64,000 nucleotides of DNA, taken from contig OZ242329.1 of NCBI GenBank assembly GCA_965208315.1, positions 3,136,500-3,200,499 on the forward strand, in the 5' to 3' direction. This stretch comes from Chloroflexota bacterium (lineage in GTDB: Bacteria; Chloroflexota; UBA11872; VXOZ01). The notes below the pieces were generated by a model. It saw only the letters and a list, made by a program, of their open reading frames with translations, was not told the origin of the DNA and searched no databases. Positions 6,678 through 60,079 of this stretch are shown here, in pieces; position 1 is the first letter of the stretch; each line of letters starts with the position of its first letter. The translations under genes were made by a program, and so were the position numbers.

Positions 6678-6780
6678 TAGTGAGAGACAGTCAAAACAGC
6701 CGCCTAAGGTCGATGCTGCCGGGTTGATTGGCAAACCTGCTAAGCTGTTCGGCTTTTGCCAATTAGCTAAAGGCATTGAG

Positions 6781-6835
6781 CCGTTCGCCCTGAGTCTGCC
6801 TGTCCTGAGCTTGCCGAAGGGTCGAAGGGTGTACG
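6781..6835. repeat. C-type hairpin repeat (CCGTTCGCCCTGAGCTTGTCGAAGGGTGAACGG)
   Basis: Copies at 6879-6907, 24213-24268, 24295-24332, 45993-46036 and 58671-58703, all intergenic. Confidence 0.85.
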
Positions 6836-6970
6836 GCGAGGCTACTAGATGCATATTGAAGCTCGTATTCACTCTCCGCCCGTACTTCGACAAGCTCAGT
6901 ACGAACGGAAAGACTACTCGCCTTCGCTCTCGAGTAATAGTTCAAAGAAGAACAAGGGGTCACTCATCCC

Positions 6971-7534
6971 ATGCCCATCTACACCGGCGGCGGTGACGAC
7001 GGCACCACTTCCCTCTTTGGCGGTGAGCGCGTCGGCAAACACGCGCTGCGCGTGGAACTCATGGGTTCCATCGATGAACTCAGCGCCGCGCTGGGGATGG
7101 CGGTAGCGTACCTGGCAACATCACAGACCGAGCTAACCGGTCTGCTCCAGCGCATCCAAAGCGAACTATTCGTGATGGGCGCCGACGTCGCCACACCGCA
7201 GGAACCACGTGCCTACACCATTCCCCGCATTATGCCCGCCCATGCGAATGCCCTAGAAGAAGCCATCGATGCAGCGGACACACAACTCGCTCCGCTCACG
7301 GATTTCGTGCTCCCCGGCGGCACACCCGCCGCCGCCGCGCTCCACTTCGCGCGGGCCGTTTGCCGCCGCACCGAACGCATCGCCGTGGCTCTAGCCCAGG
7401 AGGAAGAACTCTCCAAACCCATTCTGGTCTATCTCAACCGCCTCTCCGACCTGCTCTTCACCCTAGGCCGCCTCGCCAACCACCAGGCCGGCACCAAGGA
7501 TGTGCGCTCGAAAGACGCTCTCCCGCCAGAATAA
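6971..7534 (+). CDS. cob(I)yrinic acid a,c-diamide adenosyltransferase, PduO-type
   Basis: MPIYTGGGDDGTTSLFGGERV is the PduO/ATR signature N-terminus. 187 aa. Confidence 0.85.
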   Translation: MPIYTGGGDDGTTSLFGGERVGKHALRVELMGSIDELSAALGMAVAYLATSQTELTGLLQRIQSELFVMGADVATPQEPRAYTIPRIMPAHANALEEAIDAADTQLAPLTDFVLPGGTPAAAALHFARAVCRRTERIAVALAQEEELSKPILVYLNRLSDLLFTLGRLANHQAGTKDVRSKDALPPE

Positions 7535-7567
7535 CCATAACGTGCAACGCGGCTTACTTCCTTCACC

Positions 7568-8107
7568 CTAGTTTCCATCATCAGGGCAAGGCTCTATGCG
7601 GCTGCCGACGGTGATGCCATGACGTTCCGCCGCGCCAGCGTTGAGTTCCAGCGCGTGGGTGACGGGTTCATCGGGTTGGTAGCGCGGGAGTTGGTCGTCA
7701 GGCGTATCCGGCGACGGGGGCGGGGCAGACGCATCGATTTGGACAACCGTACCGTCGCGTAGCCAGATAATGTCGAGCGCGAATCGCATACCCTTCATCC
7801 AGAACGACGGTTGCTGCGGCTCTGGGAAAACGAACAGCATGCCCGTATCCTCCGGCAGACCGGCGTAGCCGCTCAAGCCCGCGGCCCGTTCCTCCAGCGT
7901 ATCGGCCACCAGCACGTTGATGCGCGCCTCATTGACGCAAAGCTCCGCCTCGAAAGGAAGCGGTGTTTCCCCATCCGACGCGACCCGCGTGGCTAGGCCT
8001 TCCAGCAACTCCGCGGTGGGGTCCCCACAGCTGAGCATAAGAAACACCGCTGCGAACAATAAGATAACCGCTAATTGGCGGAAAATGATCCGTGTAACGC
8101 TATTCAT
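7568..8107 (-). CDS. DUF192-domain secreted/lipoprotein
   Basis: Signal/lipobox-like MNSVTRIIFRQLAVILLFAAVFLMLSCG, then DUF192-like ...MLFVFPEP..FWMKGMRFALDIIWL. The ORF-track start (8143) is probably too far upstream. Confidence 0.55.
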   Translation of the reverse strand: MNSVTRIIFRQLAVILLFAAVFLMLSCGDPTAELLEGLATRVASDGETPLPFEAELCVNEARINVLVADTLEERAAGLSGYAGLPEDTGMLFVFPEPQQPSFWMKGMRFALDIIWLRDGTVVQIDASAPPPSPDTPDDQLPRYQPDEPVTHALELNAGAAERHGITVGSRIEPCPDDGN

Positions 8108-8911: not shown

Positions 8912-9069
8912 GGCCTTCTCCCCTCGCTATTCCTACCGGCGTTGCGCCAGTGTCTGGTCCCCAATCGCAGAGTTTCCACTGACACGTGCCACTCCTGACG
9001 GGTATCATAGACCGTACCACAGGCGAGAAACGGTGGTGCCGAACCGGTGTTACGCTTTCCAAACAGAGG

Positions 9070-10278
9070 ATGTCACTTGTGAGAATCACTGACGTTGAAG
9101 CCTATCTCCCCCATCGGCCGCCGGAGCCGCCGAGTTGGCTCTCACACATTCGCGTCGCCAATCCCATGTCGCGCTATCCGGAATACGGCGCGCGGCGGGC
9201 GCTTTGGTTGGGTCCGATGGGACCCGTTATCGTGCGCGTCAAGACGGATGACGGCCTGGAGGGTATCGGACTGGGTGGCGGCGGCAATCCGGGCTGCTTC
9301 ATCGTGGAGCAGCACCTCAAGCGCCTGCTTGTCGGCCAGGACCCGCGCGATACGGAACGGCTCTGGGACCAGATGTTTCGCGCTACGCTGCCGTACGGCC
9401 GCAAGGGGCTGCCCCTCATGGCCATCAGCGGCGTCGACAACGCCCTGTGGGATATCAAAGGCAAGGCCGTCGATCGGCCAGTCTACAAGCTCCTTGGTGG
9501 CGCCACCAAACCTGACATTCCGGTATATGCCACCGGCAATCAATCCGCGGTCTACAAGTCGCTGGGGTTTGTGGGCAACAAAGTCGCCATGCCCTACGGC
9601 CCGTGGGACGGCGTCGAGGGCATGAAGCTGAACGAGAAGCACGTGGCGGATGCCCGTGAGGCGCTGGGTCCCGATATGCTGCTGATGCTGGATTGCTACA
9701 TGGCGTGGGACGTTACTTACACGCTGCGCATGGCTGAGCGGCTGCGCCCGTACGACGTTTTCTGGATCGAAGAAGCGCTGCCGCCCGACGATTACGAGGG
9801 CTACGCCGAACTGCGCCGCCGCATCTCCTGGACGCGCATCACCACTGGCGAGCACGAGTACACGCGCTTTGGCTTCCATGAACTCATTCAACGCGGCTGC
9901 GCCGACATCCTGCAGCCCGATCTCGCGTGGTGCGGCGGCATCACCGAGGCCCATCGCGCGGCACAGATGGCCGAACCCCACGGCATCGACGTCATTCCCC
10001 ACGTGGGCGCTACCGCCAGCTACCATTTCTGCCTTGCCCACGGCAATGCGCCGCTGGTTGAGTTCATCTTCCGGACGGGCGACGGCAGCGAACTCGCGCC
10101 CGTGCAGCCCTTCTTCAGTAACGAGCCGCTGCCGGAAAACGGACGCGTGCGGCCGCCGGAAACTGCCGGATGGGGCAACGAAATCGCGTCGGAGGTTACC
10201 TTGGAGCGCCCGCATCCCACAGCGGAGAGCAAGGAAAAGGCCGAACCCGGCTCGGCCGGTCTGGGTACCGGTGAATAA
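9070..10278 (+). CDS. L-rhamnonate dehydratase-like enolase-superfamily enzyme (MR/MLE), copy 1
   Basis: Resembles E. coli RhmD in blocks: MSRYPEYGARR, GCFIVEQHL, VYKLLGG, MLDCYMAWDV, WIEEALPPDDYEGYAELR, TGEHEY, ILQPDLAWCGGIT, RPHP. An AGGA RBS precedes the ATG at 9070. Confidence 0.85.
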   Translation: MSLVRITDVEAYLPHRPPEPPSWLSHIRVANPMSRYPEYGARRALWLGPMGPVIVRVKTDDGLEGIGLGGGGNPGCFIVEQHLKRLLVGQDPRDTERLWDQMFRATLPYGRKGLPLMAISGVDNALWDIKGKAVDRPVYKLLGGATKPDIPVYATGNQSAVYKSLGFVGNKVAMPYGPWDGVEGMKLNEKHVADAREALGPDMLLMLDCYMAWDVTYTLRMAERLRPYDVFWIEEALPPDDYEGYAELRRRISWTRITTGEHEYTRFGFHELIQRGCADILQPDLAWCGGITEAHRAAQMAEPHGIDVIPHVGATASYHFCLAHGNAPLVEFIFRTGDGSELAPVQPFFSNEPLPENGRVRPPETAGWGNEIASEVTLERPHPTAESKEKAEPGSAGLGTGE

Positions 10279-10432
10279 GGATGCAGTCCTTGCGGGTGCG
10301 GGCTTGCAGCGCAGGTTGCAAACCTACGCTACCGGAGATGGCACAACCCTTGCGGAAACGAACTTCTCGGTTTCTCGCGAGAAACCGACCGGTCGCTCGA
10401 CGCAGCAAAAAAGTGAGCGCAACTCCACCACC

Positions 10433-11593
10433 ATGAAAATCGTCGAAATCGAAGCACTCGTGCCCCAAGCTACCGGTCGCCGTAGCTGGCTTGTAGAAGA
10501 GCGCATGGCGAGTCCCATGGCGCCCTATCCCGAATACGCCGAGACGCGCAGTTCCTGGCAGGGCATGGTGCCGCGCACCATCGCCCGGGTCACCACTGAT
10601 GAAGGCGTCGCGGGCATCGGCGTGGGCGGGGGTGGCGCGCCCAGTTGCCACATCATCGAGCACCACCTCAAGCCACTGCTGGTTGGCAGGGACCCGCGCG
10701 ATATTGAGTTGCTCTGGGACCTCATGTACCGCGCCACACTGCCCTACGGGCGCAAGGGGCTGCCCATCATGGCGGTCAGCGCGATAGATAACGCCCTGTG
10801 GGATATCAAGGGCAAGGCGGCAGGGGTGCCGGTCTACGTGCTGCTTGGCGGCAAGACGAAAGGGCCGGGAAACCAGCCGCCGCGCGTTGCTCTTTATGCC
10901 AGCGGCAACCGCTCGGAAGCGTATACGCGTTTAGGGTTTCAACGGAATAAAGTCTTCATGCGCTACGGGCCGCCCGACGGCGCGGAAGGCATGCGGGAAA
11001 ACGAAGCGCAGGTAGCAGCGGCACGTGACGCGCTGGGACCGGACAGGCTCCTCATGATTGACGCCTGGATGGGCTGGGACGTGCCGTATGCCGTCACCAT
11101 GGCCGAGCGCCTGCGCCAGTTTGACGTCTACTGGTTGGAGGAACCGCTGCTGCCTGATGACTACGACGGCTATGCGACGCTGCGCAAGCGACTACCGTGG
11201 CTGCACATTGCCTGCGGCGAGCATGAATACACGCACTACGGGTTTCATGAGCTTATCAAGCAGGGCTGCGCGGACATCTTGCAGCCCGATCTCGCCTGGT
11301 GCGGCGGCATCACCGTGGCGCGGCGCGTGGCGGCCCTGGCCGAGACCCACGGCCTGCAGGTGATTCCCCATATCGGCGGCGTCATGAGCTACAACTTCGT
11401 CGCAGCGCACGGGGTCTGTCCCATGGCGGAATTCATCTTCGGCAGCGGCGACGGCACGGAGATTGCGCCCATTCATTCGTTCTATGTGGGCGAGCCCCTG
11501 CCTGAAGACGGAGAGGTGCAATTGAGCGATGCGCCGGGATGGGGAGTGGAGCTTTCGCCGCAAGCCGCGTACACGCGGCCTCATCCGGTGTAG
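10433..11593 (+). CDS. L-rhamnonate dehydratase-like enolase-superfamily enzyme, copy 2 (tandem paralog)
   Basis: Same motif set as copy 1 (GGGGAPSCHIIEHHL, VYVLLGG, WLEEPLLPDDYDGYATLR, CGEHEY, ILQPDLAWCGGIT). Start moved to MKIVEIEAL. The upstream part of the 574-aa track ORF is probably non-coding. Confidence 0.85.
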   Translation: MKIVEIEALVPQATGRRSWLVEERMASPMAPYPEYAETRSSWQGMVPRTIARVTTDEGVAGIGVGGGGAPSCHIIEHHLKPLLVGRDPRDIELLWDLMYRATLPYGRKGLPIMAVSAIDNALWDIKGKAAGVPVYVLLGGKTKGPGNQPPRVALYASGNRSEAYTRLGFQRNKVFMRYGPPDGAEGMRENEAQVAAARDALGPDRLLMIDAWMGWDVPYAVTMAERLRQFDVYWLEEPLLPDDYDGYATLRKRLPWLHIACGEHEYTHYGFHELIKQGCADILQPDLAWCGGITVARRVAALAETHGLQVIPHIGGVMSYNFVAAHGVCPMAEFIFGSGDGTEIAPIHSFYVGEPLPEDGEVQLSDAPGWGVELSPQAAYTRPHPV

Positions 11594-20520: not shown

Positions 20521-20656
20521 ACAGAGTTTAATCTGTGAAGAATCGGGTCCTGCCGGGTTTGAAGCGTCTGAGAGATTACGATTGCTGCTCTTGACTCAGC
20601 CATGCCGCAACATGGTTCTGCGGCAGTATCGAGTGGGCATAAGTTATTGCGGGTTG

Positions 20657-20690
20657 AGAAGATGGATTCCCGTTTTCACGGGAATGACGG
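20657..20690 (+). repeat. A-type hairpin repeat (GAAGATGGATTCCCG-N-CGGGAATGACGG; ATTCCC-N8-GGGAAT core)
   Basis: Further copies at 21479-21512(-), 27868-27900(+), 33245-33277(+), 34535-34567(+), 36983-37015(-). Confidence 0.85.
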
Positions 20691-20918
20691 AGTGCGGCAT
20701 TGCGGATGTGGGCGTTGGCTCGTTCCTCAGTAGCGCGGGGGCTTGTCCCCCGCATAGCGTCCAGTGCGCGCGGTATTTCAACAGTGCGTTGCCTCTACCT
20801 CATGGCAGAAGGTCATTGCGACGCCGAAACAAGAGACAAACACGAATTTCTCGGCTGCTGCTCCAACTCATGAAGATCAAGATTCCGCTGCAAACCAAGA
20901 ACACCAGGACGGTGAATA

Positions 20919-21431: not shown

Positions 21432-21540
21432 AGGCGGGCACATGGGTGAACGTAAGAAGGTAACGCGAGGAGCCGTCGTCCGTCATTCCCGCGAAAGCGG
21501 GAATCCATCTTTTCTCGCGCCACCTGCACACTTCCCCAAG

Positions 21541-21565
21541 CGGGGGACAAGCCCCCGCGCTACGG
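21541..21565. repeat. D-type hairpin repeat (GGGGACAAGCCCCCGCGCTACGG)
   Basis: Copies at 20733-20759(-), 52992-53013 and 54372-54395. Confidence 0.8.
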
Positions 21566-21757
21566 TGTAGATTCTTGTTAGCTACCGTGTCCCTGGCCTC
21601 TGGCCTCCGGCCTCCGGCGGAGTGACGGAGAACTGCGCAGTGGCTGCGGGTGTGTGCCTGCCCTGCGCTGCAAACGCGCCTCTGCCGCACTTTGGTATGC
21701 TTGAAGGGTAGGCATCCACACCTTGCAAAATCCTCTTTCTAGGAGCAGAACCACAGC

Positions 21758-26915: not shown

Positions 26916-28736
26916 CTATCCCAGAATTATCCCGCGCATCTCCATCGGCTGCGTCATCATCCAGGCGCCGGTAAAGAACAACAGTACAATGATAACCGCC
27001 CAGGGTAGGAGCGCACGAATAGCCCTTGCCATGGAGCCGTGTTGTTTTCTGGCGATGCGATAGCCAACCGTCAGCGAAACGAGCATGCCGAGTTCCAGCA
27101 GCAGTAGTTCAAGCGGCACCAACCAGGAATCTGGCACGATTGCGGCCAACTCCCATTGGGGAGCACCCAGTAGGGTCACGCCGAAGTCCGCGAGAAAGCT
27201 CTGCGTCACGGGAATTGCGGTCAATGCACCGATGAGGAAGTGGAAGCCGTAGTGCGCTAACCACATCCCAAAGCCGATGGGAATGAGGGCAAAGCTGAAG
27301 CGTGTCGCCGTGGCCGCCAGCGTTTCACGGCTCCCGCTGAGGGCGCGGCTGGACCACGCCGCAGCGGTCACCAGCACAAACGGCAGCGCCACGAGGCCCA
27401 CTATAAACAGCACGCCCAGCACCACCGGCTCACTGGTCACACCGAGTTGCCCGGCGAGCCACTGTTCCAGTGCGTAGACCGGCGCTACCATGCCGAAAGC
27501 GTTCACAAAGGCCGCGAACACGAGCACGTACACGAGCGCCGCCAGGTCGATGCGCTGCGCCAGCGCGCCGACGCCGGAGTGCAATTGATCCAGTTTGCGG
27601 AACTCGCTGGTGGGAGCGCGGAGCTGGATGCCGACGTTGTCGTAAGGACAGGCCTGAATGCAGTCCAGGCAGAACGTACAGTCCATGTTGCCGACTTTGC
27701 GTTCTTGGAAGAGCCACAGTTCGCAGCCGGTCTGCACGAGTTGGAGGCCGGCGGGGATGGCGATGTCTCTCTCGGCTTGCTTAGGCTCCTTTATTGAAGA
27801 TTGCTTGCTTTCACGGTGGGAAGATTCAGATGTCGTCGGCGCAGGCTCTTGACCCACTCGCCCTGCAGAAGATGGATTCCCGCTTGCGCGGGAATGACGG
27901 ATGCCGGGCTCACTATTGGAATTTCCTCTTGTAGCGTCCAGCGATTTACCCGGGACCCCAATTCCCTCGCCCAAACTCGGGGGACTCCCTCTCCCTTGAG
28001 GGAGAGGGTCGGGGTGAGGGTGACTCTTTGCAGACCAGCTTAATGCCGACAGAGAAGGTGAGTCCTGCGCGGCGTTCGTCTCGCGGGAGTGACGAAGAAC
28101 GTCCGGCTCAGGCCTCTGCGCATAGCGCCCCTTGATGCAGTCTTTGGTCGGACACGAACCGCAGAGGTCCGGCTGGCGCACCTTCACCTCCAGCGGCGAG
28201 ACCATGCCGTGGACGAAGTGGAACTGTCCGATGGGACAGACGTACTTGCAAAAGGCCGCGCCGCGAAAGATGCCGTCAATGGCGAAGGCCGCCACAAAGT
28301 ACGTCAAGGCCACCCACGCCGTGAGCCAGGGACTCGCCCACAGATCGAAGGCCTCATACGCCCAGAAGAAGACCAAGAGAACGCCAAGCGCCAGCCACTT
28401 GTTGCGAATGACCTTCGGCCAGCGCCGGTTGGCGGGCAGGAGCTTCTTGGCCAGGCGGCGCGGCAGCATGAACGGGCACGCCATGCAAAAGATGTTGCCC
28501 GCAATGAGCAGCGCCAGCACCACCAAGCCCCGCCAATGCACCCAGGGCAACACGCCGGCGAGATTCTTGGGCGCGAGTTGCGGACCCCAGAAACCGTCAT
28601 AGAGGATGAGCGCCGACACTGCCAGCAGCACAGCCTGCATTGATGTCCGGGCATGCTTCCAGCGCAGAAAGCTCCCAATTACGGGCAGGTTGAGAAGATC
28701 GCGCTGGGTCGACGGCTGGGTGCGCGGCACAGCCAC
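26916..28736 (-). CDS. FixG/CcoG-like membrane polyferredoxin (4Fe-4S binding) carrying an in-frame repeat-derived insertion
   Basis: CMACPFMLPRR, FCKYVCPIGQFHFVHG, CGSCPTKDCIKG ... CTFCLDCIQACPYDN, plus TM helices. The low-complexity segment of about 100 aa between the two Cys clusters is encoded by mosaic repeat units at 27868-28023. Confidence 0.65.
   Translation of the reverse strand: MAVPRTQPSTQRDLLNLPVIGSFLRWKHARTSMQAVLLAVSALILYDGFWGPQLAPKNLAGVLPWVHWRGLVVLALLIAGNIFCMACPFMLPRRLAKKLLPANRRWPKVIRNKWLALGVLLVFFWAYEAFDLWASPWLTAWVALTYFVAAFAIDGIFRGAAFCKYVCPIGQFHFVHGMVSPLEVKVRQPDLCGSCPTKDCIKGRYAQRPEPDVLRHSRETNAAQDSPSLSALSWSAKSHPHPDPLPQGRGSPPSLGEGIGVPGKSLDATRGNSNSEPGIRHSRASGNPSSAGRVGQEPAPTTSESSHRESKQSSIKEPKQAERDIAIPAGLQLVQTGCELWLFQERKVGNMDCTFCLDCIQACPYDNVGIQLRAPTSEFRKLDQLHSGVGALAQRIDLAALVYVLVFAAFVNAFGMVAPVYALEQWLAGQLGVTSEPVVLGVLFIVGLVALPFVLVTAAAWSSRALSGSRETLAATATRFSFALIPIGFGMWLAHYGFHFLIGALTAIPVTQSFLADFGVTLLGAPQWELAAIVPDSWLVPLELLLLELGMLVSLTVGYRIARKQHGSMARAIRALLPWAVIIVLLFFTGAWMMTQPMEMRGIILG
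27985..28023. repeat. E-type hairpin repeat (CTCCCTCTCCCTTGAGGGAGAGGGTCGGGGTGAGGGTGA)
   Basis: Second copy at 57178-57215. The copy here lies inside the fixG-like CDS. Confidence 0.8.
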
Positions 28737-29206: not shown

Positions 29207-29289
29207 TGGGCTATCCCTTTCATAGTAGCAACGGGCGATAGGGTCTGGGCAACGTGCGCGCGTTTCACTCTTCCCGGCGCGTAGACTGG

Positions 29290-29315
29290 TAGGGCGGTTC
29301 GCGAACCGCCCCTAC
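29290..29315. repeat. G-type perfect palindrome (AGGGCGGTTCGCGAACCGCCCCTAC)
   Basis: Second copy at 37197-37224. Confidence 0.8.
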
Positions 29316-29826
29316 GCGGCGGCGCCACGCGTGCCGGTTGCATGACAGGCAGCCGGGAGCGGCAAGCTCAGTTGCTTGTGCCGCTGAGGCTACGAAACTT
29401 GGAACTCCTCAAAGCGAGGAAGGAAAGGGAATAGGCGGACGCCAAATGAGGAGGGCGTTGCTATTGGTAGCTAACCGCTCGGAGAAGATGGTTGGGGGTG
29501 AGCGCAAGACGTACGTGGGCAATGACAACGTCACGAGCATGGGGCCCCACACCGTATTTGTTACAATGCCGTGCGCTCCCGTCTGTGGCTGGACTTCCGG
29601 GAATGCAACCGAACGAGAAGAGTCATTGGCCGCAAATGACGGCAATTGTCCGTCCGGCGCAAAGGATGCCAGGGTCAAAGCTGCAGGGGTGTCTTGAGCG
29701 CCCGGCAGGCTGCAGACGACGCCATTGGTGAACGGCAGCGCGAGATGCAGCACGATGGCGCTGATGAGCAAGAAAGCGCTTAGGTTGAAGGCCCGATGTG
29801 ACATGAATCTGCTGATCCTGTGCTCC

Positions 29827-39500: not shown

Positions 39501-40052
39501 CTAGGCACGCGACAAAGTGGCAAGGGAAACCCTTGGTCCAACGAGTGTGTTGATAGCGATGTTTTCGTATTCTTCGCGCTTTAGTATCCGATCCGGCCCT
39601 ACCTTCACAAACTGCTTGTCAAATCTGGGAGATAATTTCTCGCCAATGCGGAAGTATCGGATGCGCATATTTGAGTGAGCGGTCTCATTGCCGTACTCAA
39701 TGTCGCAGACTGAACGGAGATACTCCAGAAACGGCAGTGACCGTCGCAACTGTTCTTTAGGTCCATTGTTGTCACTTAAGGTCTTCTTCAACTCCACAAA
39801 GATAGCGTACTCAATGCCATCAAAGGCATAGACTAGCAAGTAGTCGCAGATCCTCTTCCACGGGCCATCCTTGAGAACTGGCAAGTGACTCGACTTGCTC
39901 AGACGTATCGCAGCAACGGAAATGGATGGAGTAGACACGGTAACCTTCATTCTCGAATCCCGTTGACGTTCTCGGAGGCTGATGCTGCCATCCTTTTGAG
40001 GCTCTAGCACGTTTTGGGCTAAGACCTCTATCAGCCTACACCTCAGTGTCAT
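39501..40052 (-). CDS. small protein of the low-GC island; possible PD-(D/E)xK-like nuclease partner of the ATPase
   Basis: 183 aa. The start ATG lies 1 nt after the ATPase stop. AT-rich codon usage. FDGIEYAIFVELKK fits D-x9-E-x-K. Confidence 0.5.
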   Translation of the reverse strand: MTLRCRLIEVLAQNVLEPQKDGSISLRERQRDSRMKVTVSTPSISVAAIRLSKSSHLPVLKDGPWKRICDYLLVYAFDGIEYAIFVELKKTLSDNNGPKEQLRRSLPFLEYLRSVCDIEYGNETAHSNMRIRYFRIGEKLSPRFDKQFVKVGPDRILKREEYENIAINTLVGPRVSLATLSRA

Positions 40053-40053
40053 T

Positions 40054-41505
40054 TCACGCTTCCACGTCTTCTGTTAGTCGCGACGCTAGTTCGTTTGCTG
40101 CGGTATTGATTTGGTCGATCGTCTTGTCAAAGACCGGCATGTCAATGCCAAACGTGTCCACTTCGCATCGACGCAATGTGCTCTCTTCAGCGACGTATGC
40201 CCGCACGGATTCTGGCGCTAGAAAGTCATCCTCCTGGTATTTTAGCTTCTTGATAACATCTTTCTTATCCGGAAAGGACCTGCTAAGCATTATGAGGTTG
40301 TTGATCTCTTTGATTAGATAGTCACTATGCGTGGTTATTAGCACCCTCAAGCCGGCCCCCACACATCGTGCCAGCAGGCGTGCAAGTAGAATTTGATTTG
40401 CCGTGTCAAGATGACTCTCTGGTTCGTCGATGATGAGAAGGTGGTTATCCCGCGCAATGTGCCGAAAGAAGAAATACAAGTCAGACAAACCGCGCGCGGA
40501 TGATGACGCCCGGTGCAAAGGTATGGAAAAGCTCCGCTCCTTACGCGCTTTCGACCTGAATTGGATGTCATCACCCTTACTTCTGTAGTAACCTTCCATC
40601 ATGTCCTTGATATCATCAAAAAGCTTGTCTTCATAAAGTGCACTTCTCTCCCTTTCAAGATCGGCGATACTTCTGGTGTAGTCAATATTGTCCTTTATTG
40701 GAAGCGCGTAGCGGCTAGTGAAGGTATCTATCAGAGAAACCGGTGAGAAACGCTTTCTGTTCTTGTCATCCCGCATCATTTGTAGCCAGTCGACCAATCT
40801 ATTCTTGGTGAAGTCGAGTTCTTTGTAGAAAAGCGAAATACCAAAGCGCTCGGCAGATAGAACGAACGGGGTAGTGACGAGTTCCGGGAAGAGGAAATGA
40901 AGGTAGAGAGATGCGAGATACTCTACAGTTTCAGAATGATCCCACCGTCGGTTCTCAATGCCACTCCTTGCTAAAAGCAAAGACTCTCCATCATAGCGAA
41001 CCGAAAATGTGTCCCCGGCTTGATTTGTCGTTTTGACAACTCTACTACCTCTGGGAAAGTCATCACTCAACGCTACCTCAATTGATGCCCCTTCGAAGGC
41101 GCTGGTTGGCGAACTAAACACATCAGCCAGGGCAACTTCTGAGAAAGCATGCGTCACGGCCCCGGCCAGTAGGTGTCGCTCCTGATTGAGTGTATTCCAG
41201 TCGACGATTCGTCTAGCCTGCCCAAGTTCCATCACCTCTGTTGCGAGTCCTTCCACTATTAGGGAGCGCACTGAGGGATCATAGCGGGAGAACTCGTCCC
41301 CTGTGAGGAAGTACTCAACATCTGGCCATACTCTCCACATCTTTAGGAAGCCATAGAGCGTGTAGACCAGGTACGTCTTACCGGTGTTGTTGTGACCGGC
41401 GATCAATGTGAGATCGCCCAACTCGAGTTCGGCCTCGTTGATGGGACCAATCTTCTTGAAACGAAACTTCATCGGATTTGACGGTGAATTATCGTTAGCA
41501 GTCAT
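40054..41505 (-). CDS. ABC/AAA_21-type ATPase (SMC/RecF-like head, no coiled coil, no TOPRIM) of the low-GC island
   Basis: Walker A LIAGHNNTGKTY, signature-like ASSSARGLSDLYFF, Walker B/D-loop HLLIIDEPESHLD, H-loop VLITTHSDYL. An AAGGA RBS precedes the MTANDN ATG. GC is much lower than in the flanking DNA. Confidence 0.7.
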   Translation of the reverse strand: MTANDNSPSNPMKFRFKKIGPINEAELELGDLTLIAGHNNTGKTYLVYTLYGFLKMWRVWPDVEYFLTGDEFSRYDPSVRSLIVEGLATEVMELGQARRIVDWNTLNQERHLLAGAVTHAFSEVALADVFSSPTSAFEGASIEVALSDDFPRGSRVVKTTNQAGDTFSVRYDGESLLLARSGIENRRWDHSETVEYLASLYLHFLFPELVTTPFVLSAERFGISLFYKELDFTKNRLVDWLQMMRDDKNRKRFSPVSLIDTFTSRYALPIKDNIDYTRSIADLERERSALYEDKLFDDIKDMMEGYYRSKGDDIQFRSKARKERSFSIPLHRASSSARGLSDLYFFFRHIARDNHLLIIDEPESHLDTANQILLARLLARCVGAGLRVLITTHSDYLIKEINNLIMLSRSFPDKKDVIKKLKYQEDDFLAPESVRAYVAEESTLRRCEVDTFGIDMPVFDKTIDQINTAANELASRLTEDVEA

Positions 41506-41611
41506 TGCGCCAATCCTTGCATGGCGGCAGTGCGCCAATGGAAACAGAATGTGTCTTGCACAATGCGGAGCCTATCAAATATACAGTTCAATTCTAGCGT
41601 CTAAAGGCAAC

Positions 41612-45974: not shown

Positions 45975-46044
45975 CGGGCACAGGCTGTTGAAAGATTCGG
46001 TATCCGTTCATCCTTCGACAAGCTCAGGACGAACGGTTGTCCTG

Positions 46045-48865: not shown

Positions 48866-49027
48866 GCGTTACCTTTACGCATTGCGGCGCGCGAACCCGG
48901 GAGCGCGGGTGTCTCGCCCGCAGGCTACCATGACGCGAGCCACTGTCGAACTTGCGCATCTACCCCTTGGGGCACTTGGGCTTCTCAGCGCTGTGTGAAA
49001 CGCTGGCGCTGCATTGCAGCACTCACG

Positions 49028-49570
49028 TTAACTCTCTCGTTCATACCCATCGTTCCCATTCGTCACCCGAGCATACGCGCTGCTAAACCGCCAGTCCACG
49101 TTGCGCTGGCAGAGGCCGGCCTTCACAGGATTGGCTTCTATGTAGGCAATGGCTGCGGTGAAATGCCGCTCATTACGGATAAAGCGGTCAAAGTAATCCT
49201 GGCTCCAAAATGGCGCGGAGCAGCCGAAACGCTTGACCGCTTGATGGGCCGTAAATGACTTCCAGCTATGTATGATCGTGGAAACGGCATGCCCGGCTAA
49301 TGGCGCAAAGAGCACGTGAACGTGTGTCGGCATCACAACCCACGCGTGCAAATGGTAGCGCGTGTTGGCGAAATAGAGCAAGGCATCTTCTACCATCGCT
49401 GCAAGCTGTGGGTTGCGTAGAGGCGTATCTTTGGTTTCTTGATCAAGGTACGCTTCAAGCCGGCGGCGCAAGGCGCTCTTTTTTTGCGTTTCGCCAAGAT
49501 AGTTGAGTTCTTGGTTCCATCTAGCGAGTACAGTTGACGGTAATGTTCCGGCAAGCCGGAAAGTTACCAT
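49028..49570 (-). mobile_element. REP-associated tyrosine transposase (RAYT) / IS200-IS605 TnpA-like Y1 transposase gene
   Basis: HUH motif VMPTHVHVLF, catalytic Tyr region, 180 aa. No tnpB is present. The genome is rich in REP-like hairpins. Confidence 0.7.
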
Positions 49571-49753
49571 CTGCGGGATCGCTCCTCCGTCGAAGTGTGG
49601 CAGATAGCCGCGAAAGTGCCAACCGCGTGGCTCAAGGGTGGCAGACGGCAGTGATGCGGATGCGGGCGGGACGCCCGCGTTCCCAGCCGTTTCCTCTCTT
49701 TTATCTTAATCGCAGGTAGCTCCCACCGGCATCCGGGAGTCCATTCCCAGATA

Positions 49754-52689: not shown

Positions 52690-53165
52690 GGATTGGCCTT
52701 ACGTTGCATAGTTGCGGTCCGTATATATGATAGTACATTGTGGTGCCAAGAGACGGGAGTAAGCCAAATGCTGTCACATTAACCATTGCGGCGGGGAACA
52801 TGGCGCCCTTCGACAAACTCACAGTGTCCCGCATCCCGGTAGCGCAGGCCCTTTGGCAGGCTCAGGACAGGTTTGTAACCCCGTATCGAGTACGGGGCAG
52901 GCTCTGCGCTTGCTGGAGGATCAAGCCTCGTATACCTTCTCTCTCATGCGGCAATGTCGGACAATGTGCCTGGCACTGCTTGCTCAGGCGAGGGACAAGC
53001 CCCCGCGCTACGGTTCGTTAGAGAGGCTCGATCTTGCACGGCAAGAATGCAGCAATCGAGTTCAGGCGCTTTCTTGCGCTCATTTGGCGTTTGACGGCAA
53101 GATATGAGTGTGGACGCCCAGGTAAGGTATCAACTTAGTGAAGCCCGAGGAGTGACGATTCACCG

Positions 53166-54140: not shown

Positions 54141-54538
54141 ATTGCCCTCGAGCGCAAGAGCCGGCAATGCCTCCGCTTTCCTTGGATAGATTCACACCTC
54201 TCCTTGTCGGGCTCCACGGTATCGTTCAGAGTAGGGGCACGATATATCGTGCCCCTGCCGCGCAATCAGCCGTCGAAGTGCATCCGTCACTACCGTGCAA
54301 GTGGGAGTCCAGCTTCTCTCATCATACTGCGCGTGCTTCAGAGGAGAGTGTTGCCTGGACACCATCCGGAGCGGGGACAAGCCTCCGCGCTACAATCCTT
54401 TACCCTACCAAGGCAAGCTCCACTGTCTTGGGTGATTGACTGGATATGCTATCATAATTATTGATGGGCAAGAAAACAGGCAGAACGGGTATGCGTTTGT
54501 GACAAGCGACAATGGCAAGACCATAAAGGGAGCCTACA

Positions 54539-55816
54539 ATGCTTACACGACGTGCCTTGATAGCGAGCACAGCGGCGCTGGCGGCCGGGTGTAGCTCTCT
54601 TGAATCGGCATTCTCCGTGCCGAACCAGCCTCGAACAATCGATCTGACGTGGATTTCGGAGGCGTATGGAGGATTCCGCGAACGGGGACTCGGGCCGAAT
54701 GGTCTTGAAGAAACGCTCAAACATATAGTGGCAGCGCTGGAGGAGGACATCGAGAATCCGAATGGACCTGCAAAGGCACGCTATACCCTGACATCACGCT
54801 TCGTGCGCTCGGAAAATGCGGATCCCCCGCTGCAGAGTATTGATGATGTTATCGCCTGGTACGGAGGCTTGGAGGCCGACCTCCTGTCTGTGCCGCCCTT
54901 TCTTGCCCAATTGCTAGGGGAGCGAGGCGTGATCTTGTCTTTAGACCAGCTAGTCTCAGCAGATGGGTCCGAGTTCACTGACGCCATATACCCCTACCTT
55001 CTCGATCACTTTCGGTCCGATGGCGGGCTCTTTGCTCTGCCGGTAGATGCGGGCCCAACGATGATTCACTACAACCCAAGAGTCTTGTCCCAGGATGACG
55101 TGAGCAGGATAAATGAGGGTTGGCACTGGGATGACATGGTGGAAATTGCCGAGAAACTGACCGAACGCGATGAAAACGGAGAGGTGCAGCGCTGGGGACT
55201 GATCACACAGCATCAAGGATACTGGTGGGCGCTGTGGCAGAACGAAGCGGAGCTGGCCGACCCAATTACGAATCAGTGTCGGCTTCTGGAGCCGGCGGCC
55301 ATTGAAGCGCTGCAATTTTGCCACGACTTGATACACACGCATCAGGTCTCACCGCCTGTGACGAGTTTCGACGCTTGGAGCGCCTTCCAGAGCGGGTCTT
55401 GGCCGCCGATGTTCTTTTCGTCCGTGCAAGGCAATTGGAGTTCGGATAACCGCTGGGCGGCCCTGCCACGGGGCAAGCAGCACAGCGTGCCGGTGATTGG
55501 AAACATGGGTATCGCCATCACCGATAGGGCCCAGAACACGGAGGCAGCGTTTACGGCGCTCAAGGGTCTGGTTGGTGTCATGCAGCGTTTTGTGGAAGTG
55601 CCGGCGCAGAAGGAAGCAATCACCCGGCTGGGCGATTTTCGCAAGACTTTGCTTCCCGCTGAGATTGCGGCTTTCCAGCACTCGATGGAACACGGACGGG
55701 CGATACCCTTTAGCCGAGCCATGTGGACTGCTATGCGCGCGCTAGAGGAGGGCATCGTGCGGGGTGACGACGTTCTTACTGCGGTGAACGACGCCTGTTC
55801 CTCGCTGCAAGCGTAA
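54539..55816 (+). CDS. family-1 solute-binding lipoprotein, paralog A (orphan, Tat-like signal + lipobox)
   Basis: MLTRRALIASTAALAAGCSS. FALPVDAGPTMIHYNP, WGL...WWALWQN. Confidence 0.65.
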   Translation: MLTRRALIASTAALAAGCSSLESAFSVPNQPRTIDLTWISEAYGGFRERGLGPNGLEETLKHIVAALEEDIENPNGPAKARYTLTSRFVRSENADPPLQSIDDVIAWYGGLEADLLSVPPFLAQLLGERGVILSLDQLVSADGSEFTDAIYPYLLDHFRSDGGLFALPVDAGPTMIHYNPRVLSQDDVSRINEGWHWDDMVEIAEKLTERDENGEVQRWGLITQHQGYWWALWQNEAELADPITNQCRLLEPAAIEALQFCHDLIHTHQVSPPVTSFDAWSAFQSGSWPPMFFSSVQGNWSSDNRWAALPRGKQHSVPVIGNMGIAITDRAQNTEAAFTALKGLVGVMQRFVEVPAQKEAITRLGDFRKTLLPAEIAAFQHSMEHGRAIPFSRAMWTAMRALEEGIVRGDDVLTAVNDACSSLQA

Positions 55817-55847
55817 AGCTGACCGCAGATATGAAAGGATCAGTGCC

Positions 55848-57134
55848 ATGCTTACACGACGCGCCTTGCTAGCGAGCACAGCAGCGCTGGCGGCCGGTTG
55901 CGGGCCGCTCAGATCATCTTCGGATCTGCCCAGTGGGCCGGAGGCCGCCGCGCTCACGTGGTACACCTTTTCGTTTAGCGGCCTATTTGTCCCAAATGGC
56001 TCATTTGAACAGCCGCAAGAGAGGCTGCCAAAGATTGTAGCCGCGATGGGGGAGGATGTAGAAAATCCCAACGGCCCCGTGCGCGGAAATTACTCCTTGT
56101 CGCCGCGTGTCATAGGCCGCGACGACTATCCGGATCCGCCGCCCAGGAACCAAGACGAATTTGCGGAGTGGATCGGCGGCATCAATACGGACCTCCTGTC
56201 TATCAGTCCCAGTATGGCGGAATCCTTGGGGAGGCGGGGCGTGATATTGCCCTTAGAGCGCTTCATCGCCGCTGATGATCAGGACCTTGCGGATACGTTT
56301 TACCCTTATGTGCTCGATCAATTTCGAGGAGAGGGTGGGCTTTTCGCTCTGCCAATAGACGCGGATCCGCTTCTGCTCAATTACAACCCGGCTCACTTTG
56401 CGGCGCAGGGGATTCCATCGCCGGACGAGAGCTGGGACTGGGACGACCTGATAGCAAACGCGGTAAAGCTGACCCAGCGGGACGACGACGGGAACGTGAC
56501 GCGTTGGGGGCTCGTCCCGCATTTTCATGGATTGTGGTGGGCGCTATGGCAGAACGAGGCGGAAGTGCTTGGTCCGGTGACTGGGCAGTGCCGGCTGCAA
56601 GAGCCGGCCGCCACCGCAGCCCTACAATTCTGCCATGACCTGTTCCACACCCATCGCGTCGCGCCACCGGTGGCCGGGAGAGAGTTGTGGGATATCTATA
56701 GCTTGCCGCCGGATGTATTTCCAGCCATGTTCTTTAGTCAAGTCACTCGGGCGCATAGATACGAGTACCGTTTGGCAGAATTGCCCCAGGGCAAAGTGCG
56801 CAGCGTGCCGGTCTCTGCCGACATGGGCCTCGCCATTCATGCCCGTTCTGGACAAACCGACGCAGCATATACGGCACTTAAGGGTCTTTTGCAAACGATG
56901 CAACGCTTCGTTGCCGTGCCAGCACAGATAGAGGCCGTCGCGCGGCTGGGAGAGATACGGCCAAGTCTCCTCCCAGAAGAAGTGGCGGCTATTCAGCGGT
57001 CCATGGAGCATGGACGCGCGCTCACGTGGGGCGATGGGGCAGGGCATGCCATGCAGCACGTGGTCGACGGCCTCGCGCGCGGTGATGAAGTGGCTACCGT
57101 GGTGAACGAGGCCTGCGCCATAGTGGAAGAGTAG
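55848..57134 (+). CDS. family-1 solute-binding lipoprotein, paralog B
   Basis: MLTRRALLASTAALAAGCGP. FALPIDADPLLLNYNP. Highly similar to paralog C. Confidence 0.65.
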   Translation: MLTRRALLASTAALAAGCGPLRSSSDLPSGPEAAALTWYTFSFSGLFVPNGSFEQPQERLPKIVAAMGEDVENPNGPVRGNYSLSPRVIGRDDYPDPPPRNQDEFAEWIGGINTDLLSISPSMAESLGRRGVILPLERFIAADDQDLADTFYPYVLDQFRGEGGLFALPIDADPLLLNYNPAHFAAQGIPSPDESWDWDDLIANAVKLTQRDDDGNVTRWGLVPHFHGLWWALWQNEAEVLGPVTGQCRLQEPAATAALQFCHDLFHTHRVAPPVAGRELWDIYSLPPDVFPAMFFSQVTRAHRYEYRLAELPQGKVRSVPVSADMGLAIHARSGQTDAAYTALKGLLQTMQRFVAVPAQIEAVARLGEIRPSLLPEEVAAIQRSMEHGRALTWGDGAGHAMQHVVDGLARGDEVATVVNEACAIVEE

Positions 57135-57348
57135 CGGTACCAGACAGGCCACGATCACGCAAGCGGGAGGCAAATTCTCCCTCTCCCGCTGGGAGAGGGT
57201 TGGGGTGAGGATGAACGTCCGTTGCGATGGTGTTAGGAAACAAGGCCATGCGTGTGCGCGGTCGTTTCTCTCACGTAACGGAACATCTAGGACGAAATTC
57301 GCATCCCGTTGTTTGAAGACCAAAGACGGCACCGAAAGGAGCAGTGCT

Positions 57349-58638
57349 ATGCTTACACGACGCGCCTTGCTAGCGAGCACAGCAGCGCTGGCGGCCGGCT
57401 GCGGGCCGTTCAGGTCTTCATCAGATCTGCCCAGCCAACCGGAGGTGGCCGCGCTCATATGGCGTACGTTTTCGTTTAGCGGTCTTTACTACCAGCCAAG
57501 CTTGACCTTCGAAGAGCCGCAAGAGAAATTGCTGAGAATTGTTGCCACGCTGGAGGAAGACGTAGACAACCCCAACGGTCCTGCAACCGGTCGTTACACG
57601 CTAGCGCCCGGGCTCATCGGCCAAGGAGACTATCCTGACCCTCCGCCCAAGGACGACGATGAGTTTGCCGAATGGATCGACAGCATCGAAACTGACCTCT
57701 TGTCTATCAGTCCCGATATGGCGGAAACCCTAGGGAAGCGGGGCGTCATACTGCCGTTGGAGCGGTTCATCGCAGCCGACGACCAGGACCTCACGGAGAC
57801 GTTCTACCCCTATGTGCTCGATCAATTTCGCGGTGAAGGCGGTCTCTATGCGCTGCCCATAGACGCGAATCCGCTGCTACTCTACTACGACCCCGCCTAT
57901 CTCAGACTTCGAGGTGTTTCTCCACCAGACGAAACGTGGACCTGGGACGACCTAGCAGCCAATGCGCTGGTACTGACCAGGCGCGACGAGGAAGGGCAGG
58001 TGACGCGGTGGGGTCTCATGCCCCACTTTCGCGGGCTCTGGTGGGCGCTGTGGCAGAACGGGGCAGAGGTGAATGACCCGGTGACCGGCCGGTGCCGTTT
58101 GCAGGACCCGGCCGCCACGGAAGCCCTGCAATTCTTTCACGACCTGCTGCATATCCACCAGGTCGCGCCGCCGGTGGGTGGGAGAGAGACCTGGGAGTTT
58201 TACGGCGGGATGGACGATACGGTGCCGGCGATGTTCATTAGTACAGTCAATCATGAACCAAGGTTTGACTACCGCTTGGCAGAGCTGCCGCGCGGCAAGG
58301 TGCGCAGCGTGCCGGTTTCCGCCCACATGGGTCTTGCCATCCACGCGCGCTCGGGGCAGACCGATGCGGCGTACACGGCTTTGAAGGGTCTGTTGCAGAC
58401 GATGCAACGCTTTGTGGGCGTGCCTGCGCAGAGAGAGATGGTAGCGCGGCTGCCAGAGATTTGGCCAACACTGGGGCCCGCGCAATTGACGGCTCTGCAA
58501 CAGTCAATGGAATTCGGACGGGCAGCGCCCTGGGACGACCGCGCGTGGCAGGTCATGCAACATATCGTGGACGGCCTCGCGGGCGGCGATGAAGTGGCGA
58601 CCGTGGTGAACGATGCATGCGCAGTGCTGGAGGAATAG
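57349..58638 (+). CDS. family-1 solute-binding lipoprotein, paralog C
   Basis: MLTRRALLASTAALAAGCGP. YALPIDANPLLLYYDP. AAAGGA RBS. Confidence 0.65.
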   Translation: MLTRRALLASTAALAAGCGPFRSSSDLPSQPEVAALIWRTFSFSGLYYQPSLTFEEPQEKLLRIVATLEEDVDNPNGPATGRYTLAPGLIGQGDYPDPPPKDDDEFAEWIDSIETDLLSISPDMAETLGKRGVILPLERFIAADDQDLTETFYPYVLDQFRGEGGLYALPIDANPLLLYYDPAYLRLRGVSPPDETWTWDDLAANALVLTRRDEEGQVTRWGLMPHFRGLWWALWQNGAEVNDPVTGRCRLQDPAATEALQFFHDLLHIHQVAPPVGGRETWEFYGGMDDTVPAMFISTVNHEPRFDYRLAELPRGKVRSVPVSAHMGLAIHARSGQTDAAYTALKGLLQTMQRFVGVPAQREMVARLPEIWPTLGPAQLTALQQSMEFGRAAPWDDRAWQVMQHIVDGLAGGDEVATVVNDACAVLEE

Positions 58639-58855
58639 CAGTAACCTGAGAGGATATCTGGAAAGAGTATCCGTTCGGCCTGAGCTTGTCGAAGGATGAA
58701 CGGATACTGTCTTTGCGAACGGATTATTGTTTCCGTACGCGTTGCGCTTGCTTCTCTTGGGCCGACAAAAGAGGCCCCAGTCTGAACGGCGCTTGGCTGA
58801 GCGCTTACGAGACACTCTTGAGAACCGAGCGCAACCTTGCGCTGCGGAGCAGTGG

Positions 58856-59767
58856 TTATCGCCTGCGGTACAGTACGCGACTGGCGTTAGACGGCCTATC
58901 CGGTATGCCTAACTCGTCATCCAGCAGCGGTTCGACTGCTCTGCATTCACTCGCGTTGGGGTCCAGAGGCGCAAGCGGCGACCCCTGCCGCAGAAAGTCT
59001 CCCGGCAGCCACGTGGTGCCTTCCGCATCCCACGACCACAGCATCGTGGTTCCCGCCGCCGAGCTATGGCGCACGAAGGGCGTGGTCAAAAGTCCCGCGA
59101 ACGTCAGGTGGACGCCGTCCCAGCGTGAGGCAACGCGGCTCCAGTCCGGTGACAGCGAACCGGCTCCCGCCGGGCTATTGCGATCTTTATTGACGCTGGG
59201 AAACGAGACACACAACTTGTGCCAGTCGGCTGGGCTTGCACCCTCGAGCACACGGGCAGTCGGTTCGATCTCGGCTGCGAATCTGTCGTACTCTTCCGGA
59301 TTCAGCCAGTCTCCGGTGCCCAATACCGTATCAACGCACGAGAATTCTCCCCTGAGCGTGGAGGTGATCCGCCATGACAGCGGCCGTTGCGCGTATGCTT
59401 CCCAATGGGCAATCGTCTCCGGCGACAATTGGCGTGATGAGGCGCGTTCCATCTCATTTTTACTTATGAAGACTTGCCGGCTGCAATCAATAGGGGCAGT
59501 CCACCAGCGGCTTGCCGGATGGTCCGCCACTGCGCGCGCCAAGCTCTTCAGGCTTGAGCCATGTGAGAGGGCGGCCGTTACGGCCTGTTCGAAGTGGCCC
59601 GACCAGGGATTGAGCGCGTCCAAGGCGACGACGGCGCGCGCGAAGGCGTGCCGGGGCGTGACGGCCTGCGCGATGGGAACCTGATCCCGCGCGACCGTCA
59701 GCAGAAAGGCACAGCCCACCGGGCAGCGCAGCAGCCGGGCGGCTGAATCATCGGTGTTGGGCTCCAT
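58856..59767 (-). CDS. hypothetical protein (weak call)
   Basis: 303-aa ORF with no recognisable motifs. It overlaps an equally long antisense ORF, which is common in GC-rich DNA. Coding status is uncertain. Confidence 0.3.
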   Translation of the reverse strand: MEPNTDDSAARLLRCPVGCAFLLTVARDQVPIAQAVTPRHAFARAVVALDALNPWSGHFEQAVTAALSHGSSLKSLARAVADHPASRWWTAPIDCSRQVFISKNEMERASSRQLSPETIAHWEAYAQRPLSWRITSTLRGEFSCVDTVLGTGDWLNPEEYDRFAAEIEPTARVLEGASPADWHKLCVSFPSVNKDRNSPAGAGSLSPDWSRVASRWDGVHLTFAGLLTTPFVRHSSAAGTTMLWSWDAEGTTWLPGDFLRQGSPLAPLDPNASECRAVEPLLDDELGIPDRPSNASRVLYRRR

Positions 59768-60079
59768 TGGTTAGTGTTCTTTCGGCTAGGATTCACCCAT
59801 TCTGCGGCCCTATGGCGGAGCGTAAGCCGTGCGCGGCGCATTAGATTCCGCGTCTTTGACGAAGTCAGCGAACCTTGGTTCGCGTAATCTAAAAATCCCC
59901 CGATTCTAGATTCTTCGTCGCTCCGCTCCTCAGAATGACATAGCGAGGAGCTGCCTTAAGCGTTGGTTCGCACGTTGTCAGCTTATATCTCTATGGTTCT
60001 AAGTCCGAACCTACCAATTCCCTACCTGACATCTACAGGAATGACGTGCAATGTCACAAGATCATATGAGGTGTAACCG

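Follow-up and report, generated by a model that had tools for sequence, protein, structure and literature searches.

The question that this locus raises is what the many short palindromes between its genes are. The stretch under study, hereafter the window, comprises 64,000 nt of the genome of a Chloroflexota bacterium (assembly GCA_965208315.1, contig OZ242329.1, positions 3,136,500 to 3,200,499), for which an initial annotation had described at least eight families of hairpins that resemble repetitive extragenic palindromic (REP) elements and bacterial interspersed mosaic elements (BIMEs). Our results indicate that the window very probably samples a dense, genome-wide population of mixed REP-type palindromic elements, which includes GTAG-tagged REPs that are, or once were, most likely mobilised by a REP-associated tyrosine transposase (RAYT). 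These elements would be short and non-autonomous, and their population would have four components.

Hairpin units in the window

Scanning the window with hidden Markov models (HMMs) of the families, built from the window and from related genomes, yielded about 33 short palindromic units in about ten sequence families (0.52 units per kb), close to the roughly 30 units first estimated. The non-coding fraction, which makes up 14.7% of the window, holds 31 of the 33 units (p = 6e-24), and in an all-against-all short BLAST search of the window every pair of short repeats was intergenic, with the sole exception of a copy at 27867. The initial description of units that tile the intergenic space and usually lie between genes is therefore accurate for nearly all of them, but not for an in-frame cluster at 27867-28104 in the gene fesM.

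The recurrence of the units was borne out far above chance by shuffle controls. Six matches to the A core (ATTCCC-N8-GGGAAT) were found in the window against 0.11 expected. Family B is present in two exact or near-exact copies and two degenerate ones (21600 and 54284), family D in four copies, family E in one exact copy and a variant at 57179, family F in two copies, one of which (5555) lies beyond the range first given, and family G at two loci. For family C we found two short copies and four variant or composite ones (6781, 6867, 24213 and 24291); the consensus first proposed for it has no exact match in the window, its best matches carrying two mismatches. Dinucleotide shuffles gave means of 0.00-0.01 matches for families B to G, and no shuffle reached the observed count. 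Two families come in addition to the eight first described, namely I, which flanks the RAYT gene, and J (54229). All four clusters named at the outset (20.65-20.76, 21.48-21.63, 33.15-33.28 and 36.98-37.22 kb) are present.

Perfect hairpins with a stem of at least 8 bp number 24 in the window and 9.2 in shuffled sequences. Predicted RNA folding supported most families, with fold z-scores of -3.2 to -6.6 for A, B, C, D, F, G, J and an H doublet, but not E, I, the single H units and the degenerate copies B3 and B4, which folded no better than shuffles. Rfam at gathering thresholds and ARAGORN gave no matches in the window, and among about 30 window proteins Pfam detected, apart from the RAYT, no transposase or integrase and only housekeeping genes. 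A CRISPR array was rejected: spacing is not regular, no arrays are present and the units occur in both orientations. A palindrome (TCGGTTTC...GAAACCGA) at 437 and 10365 was kept out of the REP count, being operator-like and upstream of genes.

Class assignment of the units

By their sequence features, the units can be assigned to classes that are already known, namely REPs of the CGTC-1/dRS3 type, PIT/TMECO motifs and, together with a RAYT, GTAG REPs. Di Nocera et al. 2013 (PMC3733652) distinguish two REP super-families, whose members end in an unpaired GTAG or CGTC. CGTC-1 repeats, which correspond to dRS3 of Neisseria and to the Rickettsia palindromic element (RPE) RPE-6, consist of a CGTC head, an 8-bp stem starting with AT, a 4-nt loop and a CCA tail (PMC3733652). 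All six A copies fit this definition, as unit A reads tCCGTC-ATTCCCGC-GAAA-GCGGGAAT-CCAtcttct with a GNRA-like loop of 4 nt. They are located at 20656-20692 (A1, minus strand), 21478-21515 (A2, plus), 27867-27902 (A3, minus, inside fesM), 33241-33279 (A4, minus), 34535-34567 (A5, minus) and, in a dimer of A6 (plus) and B2 (minus) with the CGTC heads outside and a gap of roughly 1-8 nt, at 36981-37057. A2 is terminator-like, its hairpin being followed by CCATCTTTTC. Family B is the A scaffold with compensatory stem changes; what had been described as two separate families are thus sub-families of one. B1 (33154-33188, plus) has a ACTCCGGC stem and a fold z-score of -4.4, B3 (21598-21630, minus) is degenerate and adjoins a run of the heptamer CTGGCCT, and B4 (54282-54319, plus) is a degenerate, non-folding B-like unit with a weak HMM score.

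Hairpin covariation was observed directly in 140 of 310 matches to the CGTC frame, drawn from the window and its relatives, that retain at least seven of eight pairs. In these 140 units, T:A alternates with C:G at stem position 2, C:G with G:C at position 6 and C:G with T:A at position 8, while broken pairs are almost nil and loops are mostly GAAA, GCAG or GCAA. Because the stems covary, it is structure rather than sequence that is conserved. This bears on the idea that the units are recognised by a DNA-binding protein of the host (a nucleoid protein, gyrase, integration host factor or a global regulator), whose specificity would account for their identity. E. coli REPs and BIMEs do bind gyrase, integration host factor and DNA polymerase I, and the unpaired heads and tails of the units (CGTC...CCA, GTAG) are conserved as strongly as the stems. 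However, besides the covariation, about ten unrelated families would demand about ten proteins, and the modules undergo tandem duplication and are also found within a gene. Such binding, which would be compatible with a mobile-element origin in any case, is very unlikely to be what the units are primarily for.

The CGTC units of the window share with published CGTC-1 repeats the mostly heads-outside dimers without an adjacent transposase, and with Rickettsia RPEs the in-frame intragenic copies. They differ in their host, since the 2013 paper lists five phyla with CGTC repeats and Chloroflexota is not one of them (PMC3733652), in an extended tail (CCATCTTCT), in the stem of sub-family B, which starts with AC instead of AT, and in that units of this lineage are often paired in inverted orientation with the unrelated GTAG family D. 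No transposase adjoins any A or B unit in the window. To our knowledge, the CGTC-tagged class has no dedicated transposase. In Neisseria, dRS3 flanks RS elements and serves as the integration site of filamentous prophages. As a separate observation, a CGTC-1 27-mer occurs in at least 120 IMG/VR viral or prophage contigs (loci L137-L216), often within 100 nt of a contig end, which may recall the dRS3 prophage attachment site or may alternatively reflect only host flanks included in prophage calls.

The H units (aTGTCATTCCGAGCGyAGCGAGGAATCTAG) bear a TGTC variant head. The long palindrome reported for this family does exist at 34.2 kb, where H1 and H2 form an inverted, REPIN-like doublet with a 105-nt hairpin (34226-34330; fold z-score -6.6), but the second one at 59.9 kb proved to be a single related unit, the H variant H4 (59903-59942, minus; GTCATTCTGAGGAGCGGAGCGACGAAGAATCTAG). 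A further single unit, H3, lies at 34404-34429 (plus).

In the second super-family, D, F, G and J all keep the GTAG head in a cross-genome consensus built on 42, 10, 10 and 20 copies, respectively, and show the expected stem-loop (fold z-scores -3.2 to -6.3). Family D comprises D1 (20728-20753, plus; GTAGCGCGGGGGCTTGTCCCCCGC), D2 (21537-21566, minus), D3 in a divergent intergenic region (52986-53014, minus) and D4 (54373-54396, minus). F1 (5554-5580, minus; HMM 30.5 bits), likewise in a divergent intergenic region, has a degenerate GCAG head, and F2 (10307-10335, minus) reads CCGGTAGCGTAGGTTTGCAACCTGCGC with a fold z-score of -4.8. G1 (29287-29316; GTAGGGCGGTTCGCGAACCGCCCCTAC) is fully palindromic; G2 (37196-37227; fold z-score -5.4), also palindromic, has T-runs on both sides and lies between convergent genes, resembling a bidirectional terminator. 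J1 (54229-54260; GTAGGGGCACGATATATCGTGCCCC) is palindromic as well and has a fold z-score of -6.3. Family I (consensus GTAGcctGCGGGCGrGACrCCCGCGCTCCC) has a 7-bp stem, which is perfect in relatives, and the fold of the window copy is not significant; the head of I1 is GGTAG and I2 lacks GTAG. GTAG-tagged REPs with a RAYT, or REPtrons, are reportedly known from the work of Nunvar in 2010, Ton-Hoang in 2012, Messing in 2012 (structure 4ER8) and Bertels and Rainey on REPIN-RAYT systems. The terminal GTAG, the GC-rich stems of 7-11 bp and the 3-5-nt loops of these systems recur in D, F, G, J and I, and the H doublet and the A6/B2 pair look like REPINs.

Family C is an untagged hairpin with a stem of 10-11 bp and an 11-nt loop. 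C1 (6779-6836, plus) is a composite 56-nt unit with a second C core nested in its loop, 95% identical to the copy at 24213, the composite unit C3 (24210-24268, plus). The other copies are C2 (6867-6911, minus), C4 (24291-24329, plus; HMM 33.8 bits), C5 between convergent genes (46001-46038, minus) and C6, also in a convergent intergenic region (58668-58706, plus; fold z-score -3.5). Searching the literature by sequence, we found no published name or paper for families C and H.

Family E is not a REP at all, its motif identifying it as the PIT/TMECO intrastrand-triplex element whose consensus was given by Holder et al. 2015 (PMC4666352). E1 (27983-28026, plus, inside fesM) and E2 (57176-57216, plus, between two solute-binding protein (SBP) genes) match CCCTCNCCC-N3-6-GGGNGAGGG-N3-GGGNGAGG exactly, two matches against none expected. 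E1 is nearly identical to a type-B copy of E. coli, where the motif is always intergenic (PMC4666352), whereas E1 is translated and the motif co-clusters here with REPs.

Dispersal in related genomes and assemblies

The window is of metagenomic origin and short-read contigs end at its units, so that the repeats could in principle be artefacts of assembly or binning, or be confined to this one stretch. The window proteins are, however, identically encoded in three NCBI metagenome-assembled genomes (MAGs; GCA_034423255.1, GCA_028874835.1 and GCA_028874195.1), in ENA assemblies of samples SAMN13943213-15 and in one Logan assembly, and contigs of these independent assemblies match the window at 99.8-100% identity, repeats included. 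Their sample names point to sponge metagenomes. The same families also occur in long-read closed chromosomes of related MAGs, where they are spread over megabases. An artefact, or a peculiarity of the window, is thereby already refuted.

Short-read contig ends cluster at repeats: at 21503 (three contigs), 33155, 34334, 34349, 37072 and 59848, the last being the end of a Logan contig about 55 nt short of H4. They pile up on the units because multi-copy sequences break short-read assemblies. At 21503, three independent short-read contigs (L123-L125) leave the window in the 3' arm of A2 for one shared other sequence (GGTGGATTCACATTTCAAG...); the switch inside A2 reflects a branch of the assembly graph, or else recombination at a REP or an alternative junction. 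An apparent 36-nt indel near 63.9 kb was rejected, being a run of N in the other assembly.

Dispersal was also directly observed on a larger scale. A 31-mer of A (CGTCATTCCCG-N6-CGGGAATCCATCTT), used as query in a genome scan, was found in at least 116 genome stretches, with many well-separated loci on closed Chloroflexota chromosomes, among them at least eight between 248 kb and 2.94 Mb on OZ244803.1 and at least 11 on OY282371.1. Among the matches listed are Gammaproteobacteria, Alphaproteobacteria, Neisseria, Planctomycetota and Ignavibacteria, and, with Hydrogenedentota, Zixibacteria, Gemmatimonadota, Acidobacteriota and others, they span more than ten phyla. In 52 Chloroflexota loci (412 kb), taken as the set of relatives, we counted 43 C cores, 38 copies of D (spread over 23 of the 52 loci), 25 of B, 20 E tails, 11 copies of H, nine of J, six of F and three of G. 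In contrast, families other than A are essentially absent from 459 kb of non-Chloroflexota loci, and the Dehalococcoidia chromosome OY282371.1 carries family A only; the multi-family set is therefore specific to the clade of the window. With 1 kb to the left and right of the ascertaining A copy masked, the relatives contained 0.41 units per kb for all families together. By extrapolation, a 3.4-Mb genome would hold on the order of a thousand units, a figure that includes residual ascertainment bias. REPs of the GTAG super-family typically exceed 100 copies per genome.

The RAYT gene and its flanking repeats

The identity and flanks of a transposase gene were observed directly. On the minus strand, the RAYT gene spans 49028-49705, and its open reading frame (ORF) from the first ATG (49028-49570) matches the NCBIfam model NF047646, 'REP-associated tyrosine transposase', with 85.1 bits (cut-off 80) and Pfam Y1_Tnp with 31.4 (cut-off 23). 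Its closest solved structure is 4ER8, the E. coli TnpA-REP, with which the HUH motif (HVH) and the catalytic tyrosine (YIEANPVKAG) align. The gene is flanked by inverted I units: I1 (48898-48930, minus; GGTAGCCTGCGGGCGAGACACCCGCGCTCCC), which lies about 100 nt 3' of the gene and is conserved in three related species, and I2 (49655-49685, plus), which is inverted relative to I1 and overlaps the 5' coding region of the RAYT. Together, the RAYT and its inverted I units represent a REPtron in the published sense.

Synteny of the neighbourhood (AXE1-like gene, RAYT, inositol phosphatase, BacA) and the flanks are conserved in three species. Two related closed chromosomes carry orthologues of 83-85% identity in the same neighbourhood. 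The 3' I unit recurs at both orthologous loci, where modules with an I unit also form a tandem array at the 5' end of the gene. One copy of the RAYT was found in the window, and it is apparently vertically inherited.

This 5' end is variable. I2-type modules are present in two to four tandem copies in other strains and species, and each module also supplies an ATG and the first codons of the gene, so that the REP is read as GNAGVPPAS. Strains nearly identical to the window possess two such modules and an intact RAYT of 226 aa (P0121), while the window has one: compared with those strains, a 72-nt module has been deleted, and with it went the start codon. The conserved N-terminal codons (RGWHFRGYLPHFDGG), which extend up to 49705, contain no ATG, GTG or TTG. 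In published REPtrons the 5' REP is not, as here, inside the RAYT coding region in a tandem module that also bears the start codon. A second difference is that the cognate family I is rare, while for the abundant GTAG families no RAYT was found.

Arrangement and dynamics of the units

More than half of the units lie within 150 nt of another one (185 adjacent pairs among 350 units). Two kinds of heterotypic pair are commonest. One is A with D, which are on opposite strands in 26 of 29 adjacent pairs (p = 1.5e-5); of the 42 D units, 28 are accompanied by A or B no more than 120 nt away. The other, the most frequent one in relatives, is A(+)/B(-) with heads outside (16 pairs including A6/B2, gaps mostly 1-11 nt). 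As in the BIMEs of E. coli and the Neisseria intergenic mosaic elements (NIMEs), several REP types in both orientations form intergenic clusters that vary between strains. The term BIME-like is nevertheless only loosely apt, as these mosaics are heterotypic, have gaps of 1-150 nt instead of fixed spacers and show no regular Y/Z alternation; moreover, cluster partners come from different super-families, unlike those of BIMEs and NIMEs.

Insertions and deletions between strains and species are also a matter of direct observation. At the site of OZ244803.1 that is orthologous to 20.5-20.9 kb, a module of A and D is present in three tandem copies, about 185 nt in period, while the window has it once, and the copy number of the CTGGCCT heptamer beside B3 varies between strains. 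The H1+H2 doublet with about 80 nt of flank has a second copy about 3 kb past the end of the window (L004). Two 39-nt imperfect inverted repeats (36900-36938 and 37149-37187) bracket the A6/B2 dimer, and their GTCAACGAAT(T)ACCTGA motif also stands beside the H doublet (34379-34395) and its L004 copy. These inverted repeats may be part of a larger composite element, similar to a miniature inverted-repeat transposable element.

We infer that the GTAG REPs (D, F, G, J and I) are most likely mobilised, now or formerly, as single-stranded DNA hairpins by RAYT enzymes of the HUH/Y1 type. New copies would land preferentially beside existing ones and so create heterotypic mosaics, which would then expand and contract by tandem duplication and deletion between repeated modules. 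The CGTC REPs of this lineage may form inverted hetero-dimers with GTAG units that a RAYT mobilises, and may spread by hitch-hiking with them. The opposite-strand bias of A and D, the proximity of D to A and B units and the duplication of an A+D block in a relative speak for this reading, to which we assign, together with the related one that REP-encoded RHSxESxNP modules of a protein linker in FesM have been exapted instead of merely tolerated, only a slim chance.

Several observations weigh against a population of REP-type elements with RAYT-mobilised members. No transposition event was seen, only tandem copy-number differences between strains and species, and such changes need recombination or slippage and thus no transposase. 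The RAYT itself may be inactive in this strain, considering its missing start codon. Family I, which flanks it, is rare (two copies in the window and three in the 412 kb of relatives), and a tblastn search of all fetched loci revealed no further RAYT, so that the abundant families D, F, G and J are not tied to any transposase. The folding results for E, I and the single H units point in the same direction. Finally, genome-wide copy figures come from the window and its relatives instead of the source genome, and the densities in relatives are biased upward, because those loci were ascertained through an A unit. On the other side, the 'expanded, multi-family REP repertoire' that the initial annotation proposed is consistent with the GTAG and CGTC heads, a RAYT with cognate inverted REPs, the dispersal in relatives and the contig breaks, and its own refutation, units confined to the window or created by assembly, is contradicted by the matching independent assemblies and by relatives that carry the families.

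Placement relative to genes

Many units are found 10-120 nt downstream of a stop codon, which could indicate that the hairpins are primarily functional terminators or mRNA-stabilising 3' structures, held in place by selection instead of spreading as mobile DNA. This idea is in line with the T-rich tail of A2 and with G2, which is bordered by T-runs and lies between convergent genes. Across the window, units occupy three of eight convergent, two of ten divergent and about 13 of 38 unidirectional intergenic regions, differences that are not significant. In 51 sources with crude gene calls, they occupy 29 of 55 convergent, 64 of 183 unidirectional and 19 of 55 divergent regions. The resulting enrichment is modest for convergent over unidirectional regions (p = 0.027), and the bias towards convergent over divergent regions, for which the initial annotation had suggested a test, is weak (p = 0.083).

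Against terminators as the main function stands the orientation of the units relative to transcription, which is 50:50 in every family; given this lack of orientation bias, we reject that function as the primary one. Terminators would also not be expected in the 19 divergent regions or in frame inside fesM, and terminator-like sites are not enriched between 20 and 40 kb (17 against 17.8 expected). Terminators that evolved independently would not be expected to share 25-35-mers almost unchanged across dozens of loci and many phyla, and the RAYT with cognate flanks is present besides. Selection for termination or stabilisation is thus an improbable explanation of the units. Most copies are intergenic, often shortly 3' of a stop codon, and under the preferred reading of mobile REP-type elements some of these may secondarily terminate transcripts or stabilise mRNA 3' ends. 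Such a secondary role is plausible for some copies but is unable to explain the whole population.

An in-frame REP cluster in fesM

The units inside a coding sequence belong to a 606-aa ORF (26916-28736, minus strand), which is a real gene, fesM, encoding a polyferredoxin. FesM has an insert of 133 aa between the conserved motifs CIKGRY and GCELWLFQE, and the DNA of this insert consists of A3, E1 and a decayed B-like CGTC half-unit (28078-28104, minus; weak HMM score), which are translated in frame as IRHSRASGNPSS, SHPHPDPLPQGRGS and VLRHSRETN, respectively. In the 28 closest homologs the linker measures 56-206 aa; by motif count, it contains zero to four modules of the RHSGESRNP/RHSRESGNP type, mostly one to three, and the triplex-motif peptide is variably present. 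In one homolog (P0008), five such repeats are seen by eye. Among 63 more distant homologs, the median linker is 26 aa and an RHSxES-type motif was found in none. Throughout the clade, the fesM linker is a hotspot of REP insertion. REPs and Rickettsia RPEs inside genes have already been described, with clusters of 43-82 aa (PMC3733652); compared with these, the fesM case is larger and recurs across a clade. An AlphaFold model of FesM is poor overall (pLDDT 53.8) and shows the insert without structure, which weakly suggests that the insert may be disordered. In-frame copies would then be tolerated in this one disordered protein linker.

Other features of the window

A low-GC (about 52%) island of two genes at 39501-41538 (minus strand) encodes a 494-aa AAA_15/AAA_21 ATPase that matches PADLOC PD-T4-4_A with 355.7 bits and a 183-aa partner that matches PDC-M47B with 30.7 bits; it is a candidate anti-phage defence system.

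The palindrome excluded from the REP count (TCTCGGTTTCT...GAAACCGACCG) is present twice, at 437-470 and 10365-10392, in both cases just upstream of a gene. The genes 3' of it are a metallo-beta-lactamase-fold gene at 511 and the second of two enolase-superfamily paralogs, starting near 10433, and the palindromes look like an operator site and not like a REP. The two enolase-superfamily (MR_MLE) genes are tandem paralogs (8986-10278 and about 10433-11593) with 75% identity over 282 nt. F2 sits between them, and in the mechanical ORF list the second gene (9869-11593) is merged or given a wrong start.

Three tandem SBP_bac_1 solute-binding paralogs occupy 54539-58638, with 61-86% identity in blocks and E2 in the spacer before the third. 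From 35716 on, otherwise near-identical strains (L126 and L127) diverge from the window within an SBP gene region, where they bear an IS1595-family transposase; this structural variant is unrelated to the REPs. The GC skew, of small amplitude, is negative over roughly the first 32 kb, close to zero in the middle of the window and positive from about 48 kb.

Conclusions

Our understanding of what REPs are is unchanged by these findings, and the window presents an essentially ordinary case. What is new is the phylum that hosts CGTC repeats, the co-occurrence and density of the units, the clade-wide array in fesM and the deletion at the RAYT start. CGTC-tagged REPs are extended to Chloroflexota, and GTAG REPs, CGTC REPs and triplex motifs are brought together in one lineage at about one unit per 2 kb. 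The units also explain the fragmentation of short-read MAGs of this lineage and spurious or over-long ORF calls. Recombination between REP modules is shown to disable the start of the RAYT gene itself, and fesM offers a natural example, shared by an entire clade, of REP arrays that are read in frame in a conserved membrane ferredoxin.

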